From the NCBI GenBank assembly GCA_041489155.1, contig JBGPQP010000003.1, positions 23,297-87,296 of the forward strand: DNA of 64,000 bases, given 5' to 3'. Below the pieces are notes generated by a model that ran no database searches, was not told where the DNA came from, and worked only from the letters and a program-made list of their open reading frames with translations. This stretch comes from Candidatus Aenigmatarchaeota archaeon (GTDB taxonomy: Archaea; Aenigmatarchaeota; Aenigmatarchaeia; QMZP01; QMZT01). The translations under genes and the position numbers were made by a program. Shown here one piece after another: positions 49,761 to 55,132 of this stretch (the first letter of the stretch is position 1; every line of letters begins with the position of its first letter).

Positions 49761-49807
49761 TTAATTAGTAACGATTCGAAGATTTCAACTACCAGAGGTG
49801 TTTGTGG

Positions 49808-51184
49808 ATGGATTTCGGCTTTGAAGGCTTCGACTCCGGTTTCACCGGTTTTGACGTGGATGTAGAAGAGTTTCAGGTCAGCAAAAAGAAGAAATATGAC
49901 AGGATATGGAAAGTCGGTTTCGGCGGAAGCGTGTGTTCAAAACCCGTCATACTCAATGACGTAATATACTTCGGCTCCCTCGACCACAACGTTTATGCTA
50001 TTGATATCAAAACGGAAAAAGAGGTCTGGAGATTCAAGACCAACGGCATAATATTGGATTCTTCCCCGACGATACACAATGGTGTATTGTTTATAGGATG
50101 TTTTGGCGGAACCATTCATGCAATAAACATTCGGACAGGCAGGGAAGTGTGGAATTACAAGGCAGGAGGAGAGATAAACTGCAGGCCGCTTGTCTGGAAC
50201 GGCGCGGTTTATTTCACGTCGAAGGACGGTTTTCTTTACGCCGTATACGAAACGGGAGGGAAGGAAATCTGGCGCTTCCGGACAGGAGACGAAATGGTTT
50301 CATCTCCCACTGTCCACAAAGGCAAAATATTCATCGGTTCTTATGACGGCAATCTTTATTGCATCAAGGAGGATACAGGCAAGGAGCTGTGGAGATTCAG
50401 AACAGGGGCGGAGATAGAGAACGATGACCAGTTCCTCATACACGAAGACATCATCTACTTCGGAGGCTTTGACAATTTCCTTTATGCGGTTGATATCGAA
50501 ACCGGCAAGGAAATATGGAGGTTCAGGACCGGCAAGTATGGCAACAACAGCGTTCCAGTGATTCATAACGATGTTCTTTACCATGGAAGCAGGGACGGCA
50601 TTTTTTACGCGCTTTCGCTTGAAGGCAAGGAGATATGGAGGTTCAAGGCGGGAGCGGAGATAACGGACAAGGGCCCGCTCGTATACAGGGGCAGGATTCA
50701 CTTCGGGTGTGGCGACGGGAACGTGTATTGCTTGAGCACCGAAGGAGAGGAAATATGGCGTTACAAGACGGACGGAGGCGTGTACACTTCGATAGTCGAG
50801 CATGAAGGGGTCCTATACTTCGGCAGCTGGGACTGCCACCTGTATGCGCTGGACGCGGACACAGGCAGGGAAATTTGGAGGTTCACGACAAGCACGCTAA
50901 CAAAAGCCCCATTACCTCCTGCATACGAATGCTTCGAGATGGAAATCAAAAAGGAAACGCACATAGAAGAGGCCATGGGAGACAGCAGGTACAAGAAGAA
51001 AAGGGAAGAGACATCGTCCCTATCAGATTATCATATTACAAGCGAATACCACACGGAATCGGAGTACAAGCAGAAATCAGAGTACGATACGAACTGGGTC
51101 ATGTTTGAAGATGTCATGGAAGGAGAGGAATTATGTCTTTTGGATTCGAAGGTTTCGCATCCTCGGATTTTGAGACCGAGCTAG
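49808..51184 (+). CDS. PQQ-like 8-bladed beta-propeller protein, paralogue 1
   Basis: The track start at 49802 is TTG; I prefer the ATG at 49808 (MDFGFEGFDSGF...). Eight ~40-aa blades of the type VIYFGS.D..VYAID..TGKEVWRFKT. No signal peptide or TM segment. Confidence 0.8.
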   Translation: MDFGFEGFDSGFTGFDVDVEEFQVSKKKKYDRIWKVGFGGSVCSKPVILNDVIYFGSLDHNVYAIDIKTEKEVWRFKTNGIILDSSPTIHNGVLFIGCFGGTIHAINIRTGREVWNYKAGGEINCRPLVWNGAVYFTSKDGFLYAVYETGGKEIWRFRTGDEMVSSPTVHKGKIFIGSYDGNLYCIKEDTGKELWRFRTGAEIENDDQFLIHEDIIYFGGFDNFLYAVDIETGKEIWRFRTGKYGNNSVPVIHNDVLYHGSRDGIFYALSLEGKEIWRFKAGAEITDKGPLVYRGRIHFGCGDGNVYCLSTEGEEIWRYKTDGGVYTSIVEHEGVLYFGSWDCHLYALDADTGREIWRFTTSTLTKAPLPPAYECFEMEIKKETHIEEAMGDSRYKKKREETSSLSDYHITSEYHTESEYKQKSEYDTNWVMFEDVMEGEELCLLDSKVSHPRILRPS

Positions 51185-52488
51185 AGGATTTCAGCGTGAA
51201 GAGGATCGGCAAGTTCGACAGGATGTGGAAGATTACCGAAGGCGGCAGCATAGCCCATTCCATACTGCACGACGGCATGGTTTACTTCGGTTCTTGTGAC
51301 AGAAATGTTTACGCCGTTGATTGCAAGAGCGGCAAGGAGATATGGAGGTTCAAGACCGGAGGACCTGTAACAGCAATGCCCTTTTTTAAGGAAGGCGTGC
51401 TTTACATAGGCTCGCATGACGGCAAATTCTATGCGCTTGAAGCAAAGAGTGGAAAGGAGATGTGGAGATTCAACGCAGGCAGCGAGATATTTTCCGGTTC
51501 ATTCGTTCATGAGGGCATGATTTTCTTCGGCTGCAGGAGCGGTTATTTTTACGCGCTGAACACCGAAGGCGAAGAGCTCTGGAGGTTCAGGACGGGCAGC
51601 GAAATAGTCTTCAATCCCGTCGCCGCAAATGGAAAGGTTTTCGTGGGCTCGTTCGACAGGAACCTTTATTGCTTGGACTTCGAAAACGGCAAAGAACTCT
51701 GGAGGTTTAAGACAGGAGACATCGTGCACGCTGACATCATGCCGCTGGTTCTGGAAAATATGATTTACTTCGCTTCTTTTGACAGCTATCTGTACGCAGT
51801 CGACGTTACAAGCGGCAAGGAGATATGGAGGTTCAAGACAGGAAAATACGGAAATGCAGGAAGTCCCGTGTGTTACAGAGGAGTCATCTACCACGGTTCC
51901 AGAGACGGAATTCTTTATGTCCTGACTCTTGAAGGCAAAGAAATGTGGAGATTCAAGACGGGAGGCATGCTAGAATCTCCACCTCTAGTCAAGGATGCTT
52001 ATGTTTATCTGACTTCCGAGGACGGGAATGTTTACTGCCTAAATCTCGATGGGAAAGAGCTGTGGAGGTTCAAGGCCGGAGGAGCGATTTACACCTCGCC
52101 TAAATTCTACAAAAACGTTCTTTACATTGGCTCATGGGACTGCCATCTTTATGCGCTGAATCTCAGGGGGGAAGAAATCTGGAGATTCGCAACAAGCTCT
52201 CTCGTTCCAGCACAAATACCGCCGGCCCACGAGGCCTTCAAGATGGAGATATCAAAAACGTTTGAAAGCGATACCATTGAAGAAAAGGACAAATACAAGG
52301 CGAAGAAAGACGAGACAATCTCGCTTTCCGACTATCACGTCAAAAGTGAATATCACACGGAAAGCGAGTACAAGCAGAAGAGTGAATATGAAGCCAACTG
52401 GGTTATATTTGAAGGAGTTCTAGAAGGTGAACAGATATGGACTTCGGATTTGAAGATCTTGACACCGGCTTCTCGGCTTTCGACGTAG
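51133..52488 (+). CDS. PQQ-like 8-bladed beta-propeller protein, paralogue 2
   Basis: Starts MSFGFEGFASSDFETELEDF, with its own GGAGAGG 5 nt upstream. Eight blades. The start lies 52 nt inside paralogue 1, in another frame. Confidence 0.8.
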   Translation: MSFGFEGFASSDFETELEDFSVKRIGKFDRMWKITEGGSIAHSILHDGMVYFGSCDRNVYAVDCKSGKEIWRFKTGGPVTAMPFFKEGVLYIGSHDGKFYALEAKSGKEMWRFNAGSEIFSGSFVHEGMIFFGCRSGYFYALNTEGEELWRFRTGSEIVFNPVAANGKVFVGSFDRNLYCLDFENGKELWRFKTGDIVHADIMPLVLENMIYFASFDSYLYAVDVTSGKEIWRFKTGKYGNAGSPVCYRGVIYHGSRDGILYVLTLEGKEMWRFKTGGMLESPPLVKDAYVYLTSEDGNVYCLNLDGKELWRFKAGGAIYTSPKFYKNVLYIGSWDCHLYALNLRGEEIWRFATSSLVPAQIPPAHEAFKMEISKTFESDTIEEKDKYKAKKDETISLSDYHVKSEYHTESEYKQKSEYEANWVIFEGVLEGEQIWTSDLKILTPASRLST

Positions 52489-53819
52489 ACGTAGAGGAAG
52501 TCGTGGTGAAGAAGACGAAGACTTACGACAGGGTATGGAAGACAACCATGGGCGGGAGCATAGACAACAACCCGCTGATGCATGAAGGGATTATCTACTT
52601 TGGCGCGTGCGACGGCCAAGTCTATGCGGTTGATGCAGGAAGCGGCAAAGTCATCTGGACGTTCAGGACGAGCGACACCATAGTCGGCTCCTCGCCCGCG
52701 CTTTTCGGGAACTCGATAATCATAGGATCGTACGACGGGAACCTCTACAGGATAGATTTGGAAAAAAGGGATGCGGTCTGGGTTTTTAAAACCTCGGGCA
52801 AGATATTCAGCTCGCCGTTTGTATACGGGGAAAACGCCTATTTCGGCTCGATGGACGGTAACGTTTATGCGGTCAACTGCGAGGTCGGCAAGGAGACCTG
52901 GAGATTCAGGACGGGCGGGGAGATAGCGTCATCGCCGCTGGTTGAGAACGGAAAGGTGTACATCACATCTTACGACCATAACATGTATTGCTTGGATGCT
53001 GAAACAGGAAAGGAATTGTGGAGGTTCAGGACAGGGGACGAGATGATAAACAACATACCCTTCATAGTACACAGGGGAGTTCTCTATTTTGGCAGCCTAG
53101 ACAATTATCTTTACGCTGTTGACTGCAACACAGGCAAGGAGCTGTGGAGATTCAAAGCTGGCAAATACGGCATCGGAGGCAGCATGCCAGTCGTCCACAA
53201 AGATGTGCTTTACTTCGGTACAAGGGACGGGGACTTTTTTGCCCTCACTCTTAGAGGTAAGGAGCTCTGGCGCTTCCGCGCGGGCGAGCCGATAATCGGA
53301 CAGCAGCCAAGGATTTACAATGGCATGATAATTTTCGGATGCGAGGACGGCAACATTTATTTCCTTGATATCAAAGGCAAGGAAATAGGAAGATTCAAGA
53401 CAGGCGGAAGACTTTACGGAAAGTTCCTTTTGCATGAAGGCAAGATATACATCGGCAGCTGGGACTGTTATCTTTATTGCATAGATACTGAGAACAGGAA
53501 GGAAGTATGGAGATGCCCGACGTCGACAATGGTGCAGGCCTACATACCGCCGGCACACGCCTCGTTCAGCGTCGAGATAAAGAAGGGCGTGCATATAGAA
53601 GACGCTGTCAGCGAGGACAAATACAGGTCGAAAAAGAAGGAAGAAGTTGTTTCCCTTTCTGATTATCACGTGAAAAGCGAATATCATACGGAAAGCGAGT
53701 ACAAACAAAAATCAGAATACGATACTAACTGGGTTATGTTTGAAGATGTCACGGAAGGAGAGGAATTATGTCTTTTGGATTCGACACTTTTGAATCCGGT
53801 TTCTCGGATTTTGATGTAG
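52437..53819 (+). CDS. PQQ-like 8-bladed beta-propeller protein, paralogue 3
   Basis: Starts MDFGFEDLDTGFSAFDVDVEE, with AAGGTGA 6 nt upstream. Eight blades. Overlaps paralogue 2 by 52 nt. Confidence 0.8.
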   Translation: MDFGFEDLDTGFSAFDVDVEEVVVKKTKTYDRVWKTTMGGSIDNNPLMHEGIIYFGACDGQVYAVDAGSGKVIWTFRTSDTIVGSSPALFGNSIIIGSYDGNLYRIDLEKRDAVWVFKTSGKIFSSPFVYGENAYFGSMDGNVYAVNCEVGKETWRFRTGGEIASSPLVENGKVYITSYDHNMYCLDAETGKELWRFRTGDEMINNIPFIVHRGVLYFGSLDNYLYAVDCNTGKELWRFKAGKYGIGGSMPVVHKDVLYFGTRDGDFFALTLRGKELWRFRAGEPIIGQQPRIYNGMIIFGCEDGNIYFLDIKGKEIGRFKTGGRLYGKFLLHEGKIYIGSWDCYLYCIDTENRKEVWRCPTSTMVQAYIPPAHASFSVEIKKGVHIEDAVSEDKYRSKKKEEVVSLSDYHVKSEYHTESEYKQKSEYDTNWVMFEDVTEGEELCLLDSTLLNPVSRILM

Positions 53820-55132
53820 ACGTTGAAGAAGTGACGATGAGGAAGACCAAGAAGTTCGACCGCGTATTCCGCGTCGGCTTCGGCGGCAGCATAAACCAGA
53901 AGCCGCTTATTTTGGGCGATATCATCGTTTTCGGCTCCATGGACCATTACCTTTATGCGGTTAATCTGGAGACCGGCATGGAAGCATGGAGGATGAAGGC
54001 GAACGGCATCTTCATGGAATCGTCGCCCGTGACAGACGGCGAGACGGTTTTCATTGGCAGTTATGATTATTGCCTTTACGCAGTTGACCCCGAAGACGGC
54101 GGCATCAGATGGAGGTTCAGAACAGGAGGCGAAATCCTAGGCACGCCCGCACTGGACGAAAAGCATGTTTACATAGGTTCAAGGGATGGAAGCTTTTATT
54201 GTCTGGACAAAGAGTCGGGCAAAGAACTTTGGAGGTTCAGGACAGGAGACTGGGTTGTAGCGAGCGCATTTGTCGATAAGGGAAGGGTCTACATAGGCTC
54301 CTTTGATGGCAATTTCTACTGTCTCGACAAGCGCACAGGCAAGGAGATATGGCGCTTCAGGGCCGGTGCGGAGATATACGATGTCTACCCTGGTAATGTA
54401 ATGAATGGCAGAATTTTCGTTCCATGTTTTGACAACAACCTCTACTGCATCAATGCGGACAACGGCAAGGAAATATGGAGGTTCAGGGTCGGCAGATACG
54501 GCACTGCAACTGCGCCAGCCGTCTACAAAAACGTGCTTTACCAGGAATCAAGGGACGGCATCCTTTACGCCCTGACGCTTGATGGCAAGGAGATCTGGAG
54601 ATTCAAGACAGGCGGCCTCATAGGGATGCCTGTCATAAAAGAGGACAGGATCTATGTCGGCTCGGCTGACAAGAATCTTTACTGCGTAGATCTGCATGGA
54701 AAAGAGCTATGGAGATTCAGGACTGACGGAGATGTTTTCTGGTGCCCTGTGATAAAAGGCAACGTGATATACTTCACCTCTTGGGACTGCCACCTTTACG
54801 CCGTAGATTTGGAAACGCGCAAAGAGTTGTGGAGGTTTGCGACTTCCACGTTGTCGCAGGCCGAGTGGCCTCCTGCGTACGAAGGCTGGGAAGCAGAAAT
54901 AAAGAAGGGAATGCACATAGAGGACGCAATAACAGAGGAAAGATACAAGGCCAGGAAAAAGGAGAACGTGGTTTCACTCTCCGATTACCACGTTGCCAGC
55001 GAGTATCATATGGAATCTGAATATAAGCAAAAGTCTGATTACAGCACTAACTGGGCTATGTTCGAGGAAGACCTGATTACAGGGTTCATTCAGGCAGAGA
55101 GTATCAACATTCTGCAGAAATTTATGAAGTAA
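53768..55132 (+). CDS. PQQ-like 8-bladed beta-propeller protein, paralogue 4
   Basis: Starts MSFGFDTFESGFSDFDVDVEE, with GGAGAGG upstream. Eight blades. It is the only copy with a free C-terminus (...NWAMFEEDLITGFIQAESINILQKFMK). Confidence 0.8.
   Translation: MSFGFDTFESGFSDFDVDVEEVTMRKTKKFDRVFRVGFGGSINQKPLILGDIIVFGSMDHYLYAVNLETGMEAWRMKANGIFMESSPVTDGETVFIGSYDYCLYAVDPEDGGIRWRFRTGGEILGTPALDEKHVYIGSRDGSFYCLDKESGKELWRFRTGDWVVASAFVDKGRVYIGSFDGNFYCLDKRTGKEIWRFRAGAEIYDVYPGNVMNGRIFVPCFDNNLYCINADNGKEIWRFRVGRYGTATAPAVYKNVLYQESRDGILYALTLDGKEIWRFKTGGLIGMPVIKEDRIYVGSADKNLYCVDLHGKELWRFRTDGDVFWCPVIKGNVIYFTSWDCHLYAVDLETRKELWRFATSTLSQAEWPPAYEGWEAEIKKGMHIEDAITEERYKARKKENVVSLSDYHVASEYHMESEYKQKSDYSTNWAMFEEDLITGFIQAESINILQKFMK

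Follow-up and report, generated by a model that had tools for sequence, protein, structure and literature searches.

A tyrosine-phased tail and an acidic head on a lineage-specific family of beta-propeller proteins in Aenigmatarchaeota: a possible docking handle

Introduction

Aenigmatarchaeota are uncultured, genome-reduced archaea of the DPANN group, and their biology is almost unknown. We analysed a stretch of 64,000 nucleotides (nt) from one of them, a tiny symbiont (Candidatus Aenigmatarchaeota archaeon, assembly GCA_041489155.1, contig JBGPQP010000003.1, positions 23,297 to 87,296 of the forward strand). This stretch is called the window below, and positions are counted from its first letter. 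Four overlapping genes in the window encode paralogous beta-propeller proteins, and a first-pass annotation, made from the letters alone, had pointed out that all four proteins carry the same acidic-aromatic peptide at the N-terminus (the head) and a run of four S-[DE]-Y-x-x-x hexapeptides near the C-terminus (the tail). Docking, closure of the propeller ring (velcro), phosphorylation and metal binding had been proposed as functions. Here we describe these termini, the level at which selection acts on them, and the readings that the evidence favors and disfavors.

Results

Four overlapping propeller genes with common termini

The four genes lie in tandem on the plus strand at 49808-55132, and in the list of open reading frames (ORFs) each overlaps the next by 52 nt (Table 1). 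A Shine-Dalgarno (SD)-like AGAGGTG lies upstream of the ATG at 49808, and this ATG, rather than the TTG at 49802, is most likely the start of gene 1. Pairwise identity among the four proteins is 50-55%, and all four match two Pfam propeller profiles above the cut-off, PF13570 with 210-241 bits (cut-off 133) and PF13360 with 143-220 bits (cut-off 27.6).

The four head sequences were confirmed as annotated, and the tails at 51023-51094, 52327-52398, 53658-53729 and 54980-55051 are exact translations of the DNA (SDYHITSEYHTESEYKQKSEYDTN, SDYHVKSEYHTESEYKQKSEYEAN, SDYHVKSEYHTESEYKQKSEYDTN and SDYHVASEYHMESEYKQKSDYSTN). The placement of the tail after the eighth blade and a lysine-rich linker was also borne out, both by the sequence and by the secondary structure of an AlphaFold2 (AF2) model. 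Blade 8 is followed by an ordered strand, F.hEIKK, then by a charged linker with one near-invariant tyrosine (KYK), and then by a segment of approximately 30 residues, S-L-S-D-Y-x3-S-E-Y-x3-S-E-Y-K-Q-K-S-D-Y-D-x2-[FW]-V-[MI]-F-E. The ending had been annotated as NW(V/A)(M/I)FE; W(V/A)(M/I)FE is present in all four window genes, but across the family the N is not conserved and the W alternates with F, L and M.

Table 1. Positions of the four propeller genes and of their heads, conserved tail cores and C-terminal extensions in the window
Feature	Position	Strand	Remarks
Propeller paralogue 1	49808..51184	+	458 amino acids (aa); first gene of the array; PF13570 1.1e-63, PF13360 2.5e-44
Propeller paralogue 2	51133..52488	+	451 aa; 52-nt overlap with gene 1, in the -1 frame
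Propeller paralogue 3	52437..53819	+	460 aa; protein modelled by AF2
Propeller paralogue 4	53768..55132	+	454 aa; last gene of the array; C-terminal extension unrelated to the others
Head, gene 1	49808..49873	+	MDFGFEGFDSGFTGFDVDVEEF; acidic Phe-rich tip, then start of the ordered strand
Head, gene 2	51133..51192	+	MSFGFEGFASSDFETELEDF; first 52 nt double as the end of gene 1 in another frame
Head, gene 3	52437..52502	+	MDFGFEDLDTGFSAFDVDVEEV; predicted local distance difference test (pLDDT) score <50 at residues 1-4 and 6-16; strand from residue 21
Head, gene 4	53768..53833	+	MSFGFDTFESGFSDFDVDVEEV
Conserved tail core, gene 1	51017..51109	+	SL + 4 x S-[DE]-Y-x3 + WVMFE; encloses 51023-51094
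Conserved tail core, gene 2	52321..52413	+	
Conserved tail core, gene 3	53652..53744	+	residues 406-436; pN/pS 0.15, pS 0.94 (terms defined in the text); pLDDT <50
Conserved tail core, gene 4	54974..55066	+	
C-terminal extension, gene 1	51110..51184	+	SD GGAGAGG 51122-51128; gene 2 ATG 51133; stop TAG 51182-51184
C-terminal extension, gene 2	52414..52488	+	SD GAAGGTGA 52423-52430; gene 3 ATG 52437; stop TAG 52486-52488
C-terminal extension, gene 3	53745..53819	+	SD GGAGAGG 53757-53763; gene 4 ATG 53768; stop TAG 53817-53819

The tail is the most conserved part of the protein

A search of 5.8 billion proteins gave more than 4,500 matches, and most of the best 120 are approximately 450 aa long. 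The only names found among those matches were 'PQQ-binding-like beta-propeller repeat protein [Candidatus Aenigmarchaeota]' (PQQ, pyrroloquinoline quinone) and the automatic 'BamB' of the Joint Genome Institute (JGI). Nearly all of the best 120 start with MDFGFEGFE.sDFDvElEDvEVKK and carry vSLSDYh..SEY...SEYKQKSDYD..[FW]V[MI]FE near the end. The phased-tyrosine tail is a signature of this family, neither a chance pattern nor special to the four window genes: exactly four tyrosines in exact six-residue phase are present in 114 of 120 full-length relatives and three in another 4, and shuffling of the post-propeller regions gave four phased tyrosines in 0 of 120.

In an alignment of 105 family members the tail reaches 3.3-3.5 bits per column, against 2.76 in the head, 2.5 in the blades and 1.4 across the last 24 or so residues, and it is the most conserved 24-residue window of the entire protein. 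It is near-invariant even though the propellers of the paralogues that carry it share only about 50% identity. The impression that the termini are more conserved than the blades is thus clearly right for the tail and weakly so for the head.

The uncharged residues of the tail (Y, V/I, S, Y, T, S, Y, Q, S, Y, T, F/W, M) alternate with those of a charged opposite side (D, H, K, E, x, E, E, K, K, D, D). This alternation is the pattern of an extended amphipathic strand. A tyrosine stands at every third position of the uncharged face, which would place the tyrosines approximately 20 Å apart if the chain is extended. Family heads carry on average a net charge of -7.1 and 4 aromatic residues per 20 aa.

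Binding of a metal by His, Glu and Tyr had been among the annotated possibilities, and the window tails do contain two histidines, several glutamates and four tyrosines. The histidines, however, are not conserved in the family: the first is His in about 50% of the aligned sequences (otherwise Q and others), the second is mostly Ser, and the sister subfamilies have no His. A metal-binding peptide is, in our judgment, a very improbable explanation of the tail.

Three short relatives from metagenomes (P0137, P0132 and P0138, 170-212 aa) consist of the head, one or two blades and the tail. It looks as if recombination between blades had removed most of the propeller from these proteins while both termini were retained.

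Selection acts on the tail peptide, and the residues behind it belong to the next gene

We compared the proportions of non-synonymous (pN) and synonymous (pS) differences among the four paralogues. pN was 0.12-0.14 for the tail, 0.20 for the head and 0.35 for the blades, and pS was saturated at 0.94-1.0 in the tail and 0.76 in the blades, giving a pN/pS of 0.12-0.15 for the tail versus 0.46 for the blades. In the DNA alignment, tail serines at one and the same position are coded by TCG, AGC or TCT, that is, with switches between the TCN and AGY codon families. The low pN beside saturated synonymous sites, together with the changes of serine codon family, shows that the tail peptide itself is under strong purifying selection.

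The residues after ..FE behave differently. In their own frame this extension has a pN/pS of 0.99, with pS depressed to 0.46. Its 'EGE' codons are the SD sequence of the next gene, whose ATG follows 4-6 nt further on, and its final 17 or so residues are the head of the next gene read in the -1 frame. The TAG stop of the upstream gene sits within the acidic codons of the next head (GAG CTA GAG, or GAC/GAT GTA GAC). Nothing after ..FE functions as a peptide: this stretch is the SD sequence, the ATG and the out-of-frame head codons of a translationally coupled next gene. The junctions thereby provide a clean example in which part of an apparently conserved 'peptide' is the ribosome-binding site of the next gene together with an out-of-frame start. 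The head of gene 1 is conserved although no upstream gene overlaps it.

The junctions of other genomes follow the same plan. At 48 loci the overlaps measure 43-115 nt, with a mode of 52 nt (30 cases) and 46 nt in 8, and the frame relation is the same throughout; in the larger values the choice of start codon ran upstream. The last genes of arrays retain ..[FW]V[MI]FE and diverge after it, and solitary genes outside arrays retain the tail.

These observations bear on whether the tail is conserved as a nucleotide sequence, by gene conversion or as an RNA or translation-coupling element, rather than as a peptide. The SD sequence and ATG of the next gene lie directly behind the tail, and the depressed pS of the extension is what such a constraint would leave. 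The high pS, the low pN and the TCN/AGY switches, however, exclude gene conversion or constraint at the RNA level as the cause of the conservation of the tail core, and the same peptide occurs in more than 100 genes from many genomes, solitary genes included. A constraint on nucleotides accounts only for the 24 or so residues after ..FE, where it stands; for the tail core it is refuted, and as an explanation of the tail we give it next to no weight.

The single frame relation common to all junctions had raised the idea of a programmed frameshift that fuses consecutive propellers. Such a frameshift is unlikely: every junction has its own SD sequence and ATG, and informal inspection of the three window junctions revealed no obvious slippery heptamer.

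The tail and the head tip are predicted to lie outside an ordinary propeller

AF2 modelling of the gene 3 protein with the 105-sequence alignment gave a mean pLDDT of 84.5 and a predicted template modelling (pTM) score of 0.78. Eight blades of four contiguous strands each cover residues 47-361 with pLDDT >95, a level that holds over roughly residues 21-385, and pLDDT falls below 50 at residues 1-4, 6-16, 388-453 and 455-460. A second run, with a paralogue of the sister subfamily from the same genome, gave the same picture (pLDDT <50 at residues 1-12 and 380-422), and the tail scored 33-44 in both alignment-based runs. The hexapeptide tail and the acidic Phe-rich tip of the head are thus predicted to be unfolded in the isolated monomer.

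Foldseek placed the designed propellers Cake8/Bagel8 (template modelling (TM) score to target 0.90), tetrathionate hydrolase, BamB and YxaL at the top of its matches. Conservation inside the blades is lowest in the innermost A strands (1.4 bits) and in the D-A loops (2.1 bits), both on the channel side, and highest in the B-C loops, C strands and D strands. It is thus the usual ligand-binding side that varies between paralogues.

Two ordered strands lie outside the blades, one at residues 21-26 (EVVVKK, the C-terminal half of the head) and one at residues 377-382 (FSVEIKK). In the model, the C-terminal half of the head ([DE]h[DE]V.V[KR]K) is structural, and its strand probably clasps the ring together with the strand behind blade 8. 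The annotated velcro function would accordingly fit only that part of the head, approximately residues 21-26; the hexapeptide tail takes part in no predicted closure.

The same models bear on an element acting in cis, in which the tail, as a plug, belt or pseudo-ligand, would bend back onto the propeller it belongs to and regulate access to the binding face. Both termini emerge together in the model beside the two ordered strands, and the alternating amphipathic tail could pack one face of a strand on a surface. The tail's low pLDDT in both runs speaks against this arrangement, and so does its near-invariance: a tail fitted to the channel should co-vary with the residues on the channel side, which are the most variable. 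We give an element in cis little credence.

Only the tyrosines are shared by all types of tail

With 19 ORFs and about 23 kb of 1.13 Mb (approximately 2% of the DNA), the propellers outnumber every other paralogue family of the genome, the second largest having 10 members. The 18-19 propeller paralogues fall into two classes, and the tail is found on nearly all of them. Class A is the type seen in the window. Members of class B have a shorter head, ..FSFDDFsIELEEFEVRK, their proteins stop inside the repeats (..SEYSMKSEYVFKSEYRQKSEYR, ..EYQVKVEYQQKMKY), and their genes do not overlap. A second array of the window's genome (G000:C9:20485-25610, minus strand) consists of four class B paralogues with short spacers between the genes, and protein ends in it include ..KSEYRQKSEYR and ..EYQQKMKY. 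The window's own subfamily is marked by its FGFEGF head, by an ending of the form ..[FW]V[MI]FE and by the 'staircase' of 52-nt overlaps, and the C-terminal extension after ..FE is confined to it.

A third type, ..AYKSRITYQVSTQYSEKGKYQVDSDEE.F, is found in other genomes. Tails of this third subfamily (P0123, P0170, P0171, P0174, P0178, P0185, P0186, P0115 and P0188) read ..AYKSRITYQVSTQY.EKGKYQ.. and end in an acidic run, the last residue being Phe (..DSDEEGF, ..DDDF) in all but P0174, where it is Leu. An acidic-aromatic free C-terminus of this kind serves elsewhere as a docking peptide.

Of the tail residues, only the tyrosines stay invariant or almost so in every type: one in (K/R)Y(D/E) and four in phase. 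The sister subfamilies have other residues in place of the serine and the acidic residue (..RITYQVSTQY.., ..KVEYQQKMKY), and none of the His, Ser and acidic residues of the window motif is universally conserved. What had been annotated as a strict period-six Ser-acid-Tyr repeat is therefore, in the wider family, a strict six-residue phasing of four tyrosines, with Tyr as the only invariant member of the triplet.

This pattern can be set against a post-translational modification site, with phosphorylation of Tyr or Ser or some other tyrosine chemistry switching the proteins. Five near-invariant tyrosines in an exposed, acidic segment of predicted disorder are compatible with such a site. Against it, the sister subfamilies keep neither the serine nor the acidic residue, the tail matches no known modification-site family in Pfam, and among the conserved neighbors at the 48 loci there is no kinase, ATP-grasp, radical S-adenosylmethionine (SAM) or other modifying gene. 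We consider this function quite unlikely.

The tail is confined to one family and one lineage

A sample of 301 genomes from the phylum includes 22 of the window's Genome Taxonomy Database (GTDB) family, and 21 of these carry the class A tail (3-21 matches each); so does 1 of 35 of a sister family, with none in the remaining families searched. The more general phased-tyrosine tail occurs in 21/22 and 10/11 genomes of two families that belong to one order, in 4 of 35 genomes of a third family and in 1 of 58 of a fourth. In the sampled genomes the tail is restricted to a single order of Aenigmatarchaeota, and its class A form largely to one GTDB family. A scan of 185,579 species genomes for the tail pattern yielded 56 relatives, all but one in Aenigmatarchaeota or in metagenome-assembled genomes (MAGs) of uncultured archaea, the exception being a weak match of 25% identity in a Methanobacteriaceae MAG. 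No ORF of the window's genome other than those of the propellers carries the head core or the phased tail.

The class A tail profile found 46 matches among 1.84 billion representative proteins: family members and their fragments, a few false matches driven by repeats, and three singletons. These singletons (P0144, P0146 and P0136, all from metagenomes) join the tail to non-propeller N-terminal parts, namely a periplasmic-binding-protein-like region, a signal peptide with a CxxCH motif, and a piece resembling a tetratricopeptide repeat (TPR), and they are probably assembly chimeras. Four other candidates for a tail on a different scaffold (P0139, P0153, P0157 and P0161) were rejected as TPR or other repeat artefacts. 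One further non-propeller match is a 173-aa sequence that repeats 'VESEYASTSEY' (P0159).

Searches with the head and the tail against Pfam (E up to 10) and with profiles against PDB gave noise only, for example ubiquitin 'LSDYNIQKE' at E 0.37, and a region-restricted homologue search with the sister-subfamily tail gave no matches. We found no description of the family in the literature on beta-propeller or PQQ proteins of Aenigmarchaeota or DPANN archaea. The propeller core is an ordinary PQQ-like eight-bladed one, and the tail defines an undescribed, lineage-specific family of such propellers that have no signal peptide.

Comparison with known systems

The window proteins resemble stand-alone PQQ-like eight-bladed propellers (PF13360 PQQ_2, PF13570 Beta-prop_ACSF4) in their Pfam matches and in the eight four-stranded blades of the AF2 model. 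They differ from them in the acidic Phe-rich head and in a phased-Tyr tail without Pfam or PDB match, as well as in their number and arrangement, 19 ORFs in 1.13 Mb with overlapping arrays. Unlike BamB, they have no lipoprotein signal or lipobox; the N-terminus (MDFGFEGFD.., charge about -7) has neither a hydrophobic stretch nor a Cys, and BamB belongs to organisms with an outer membrane, which the archaeon of the window does not have. Nor are they PQQ-dependent dehydrogenases (PF01011): only stretches of 32-57 residues match, at positions of about 50-106 in the 595-position profile, and those enzymes combine a catalytic propeller of about 600 aa and its cofactor site with an export signal, whereas the window proteins have about 455 aa and an acidic N-terminus with no hydrophobic signal. 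The spacing of the E-x3-Y motif of PqqA does not fit the tail, and a link to PQQ on this ground was rejected.

The tail itself also departs from known peptides. In the tails of the HbYX type (hydrophobic residue, Tyr, any residue) that dock on proteasomes, the motif is at the very end; in the window tails about 37 residues follow the last Tyr, and the sister subfamily, which ends in ..SEYR, ..MKY or ..DYGN, has no hydrophobic residue before the Tyr. Hexapeptide repeats of left-handed beta-helices, which are numerous in tandem and have an aliphatic residue at position i, differ from the tail, which has only four repeats, a Tyr at a fixed position, no Pfam match at E up to 10 and no fold in AF2. 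Kinship with peptides that are made on ribosomes and modified after translation (RiPPs) of the graspetide type finds no counterpart at the 48 loci, where no modifying enzyme is adjacent among the recurrent neighbors.

Discussion

The question is what a near-invariant, tyrosine-phased and apparently unfolded peptide does on a set of propellers whose binding faces differ. We propose that the tail, together with the tip of the head, is a multivalent docking handle to a common partner, shared by many paralogues with variable binding faces, and we regard this proposal as evenly balanced between right and wrong. The tail and the acidic Phe-rich head tip would act together as a 'handle' of multiple short linear motifs. 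This handle would dock every paralogue onto the same partner, which may be a common macromolecule or a conserved surface of the sister propellers, and the variable channel face of each paralogue would supply a distinct specificity. Docking, which was also among the annotated possibilities, fits the data best because the tail is under purifying selection, is predicted to be disordered, is near-invariant and is never found on another scaffold.

Several points weigh against a docking handle. We identified no docking partner. The genes that recur beside the propellers at the 48 loci are of the housekeeping type (DUF498, FEN1, KsgA, a KaiC-like ATPase, a DRG GTPase, quinolinate phosphoribosyltransferase (QPRTase) and PAC2), and because the conserved neighbors are of this kind, the genomic context supports no particular partner. 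Low pLDDT is no proof of disorder. The mean net charge of the propeller core is -4.4, and because the core is not basic, simple electrostatic docking of the acidic termini on the core is not indicated.

Two candidates for what the termini might bind were accordingly set aside. Docking of acidic termini on a basic propeller was rejected on the slightly acidic charge of the core, and a conserved neighbor as partner or modifier was rejected on the housekeeping nature of the synteny. In six genomes a gene of the PAC2 family (proteasome assembly chaperone 2) recurs close to one orthologous propeller locus, on the far side of a gene that was named enolase-like by eye only, and we took this as synteny. 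One such PAC2-family gene, at G000:C3:5637-6440 on the minus strand of the window's genome, is 2.5 kb from the array at C3:385-3059.

The proposed arrangement can be compared with known docking systems. F-box/WD40 proteins and the DCAF proteins of cullin-RING ligases are propeller substrate receptors with a short constant docking element, and they share with the window family the combination of divergent propeller faces with a short constant element outside the propeller. The analogy is one of function only: there is no relation in sequence or fold, the element of the window family is a predicted-disordered Tyr repeat and not a helical F-box, and no hub is known. Short, acidic, disordered peptides with aromatic residues at protein termini serve in protein docking in the C-terminal tail of the bacterial single-stranded DNA-binding protein (SSB; ..DFDDDIPF) and in HbYX tails, and one sister subfamily similarly ends in ..DSDEE.F. 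In the window proteins, however, the head is N-terminal and the tail internal, with approximately 28 residues behind it, which makes a free C-terminal HbYX or ..IPF inapplicable, and we detected no homology.

The partner might also be a member of the family itself. In head-to-tail self-assembly, the tail, the head or both of one paralogue would bind the propeller or the head of another and give rise to hetero-oligomers or chains; in one version each of the four tyrosines would insert between successive blades of the neighbor. Arrays of 2 to at least 10 genes, conserved translational coupling and one frame relation at every junction are consistent with such assembly, as are the strongly acidic head (-7) and the Lys-rich linker before the tail. 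The repeat number is fixed at four, and by our own estimate the tyrosine spacing of approximately 20 Å resembles the blade spacing at the rim of an eight-bladed propeller. On the other side, many tail-bearing genes are solitary, the genes of a sister subfamily with the same phased tyrosines do not overlap, and the AF2 models, which are of monomers, contain no intramolecular version of the contact. We think self-assembly of this kind unlikely.

A more specific picture, which we offer as a speculation of still lower probability, is that the tails form an assembly code. Each would lie extended across a sister propeller and insert one tyrosine per blade over half of the ring, the acidic Phe-rich head would cap the contact, and the paralogues would build a defined hetero-oligomeric lattice or chain. 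If true, DPANN archaea would have a kind of protein scaffold not known before, which they possibly use where they touch the host cell.

This 1.13-Mb genome devotes approximately 2% of its DNA to 19 propeller copies, and the family therefore presumably has a central place in how the organism lives. Once the partner is identified, one of the largest families specific to this lineage would have a function. The tail peptide of 30 residues offers a cheap experimental handle with which to fish for that partner.

Apart from the termini, the gene 3 protein has two cysteines, at position 185 (..YCLD, blade 4; approximately 52989-52991) and position 344 (..SWDCH.., blade 8; approximately 53466-53468), and both are more than 90% conserved among the 105 family members.

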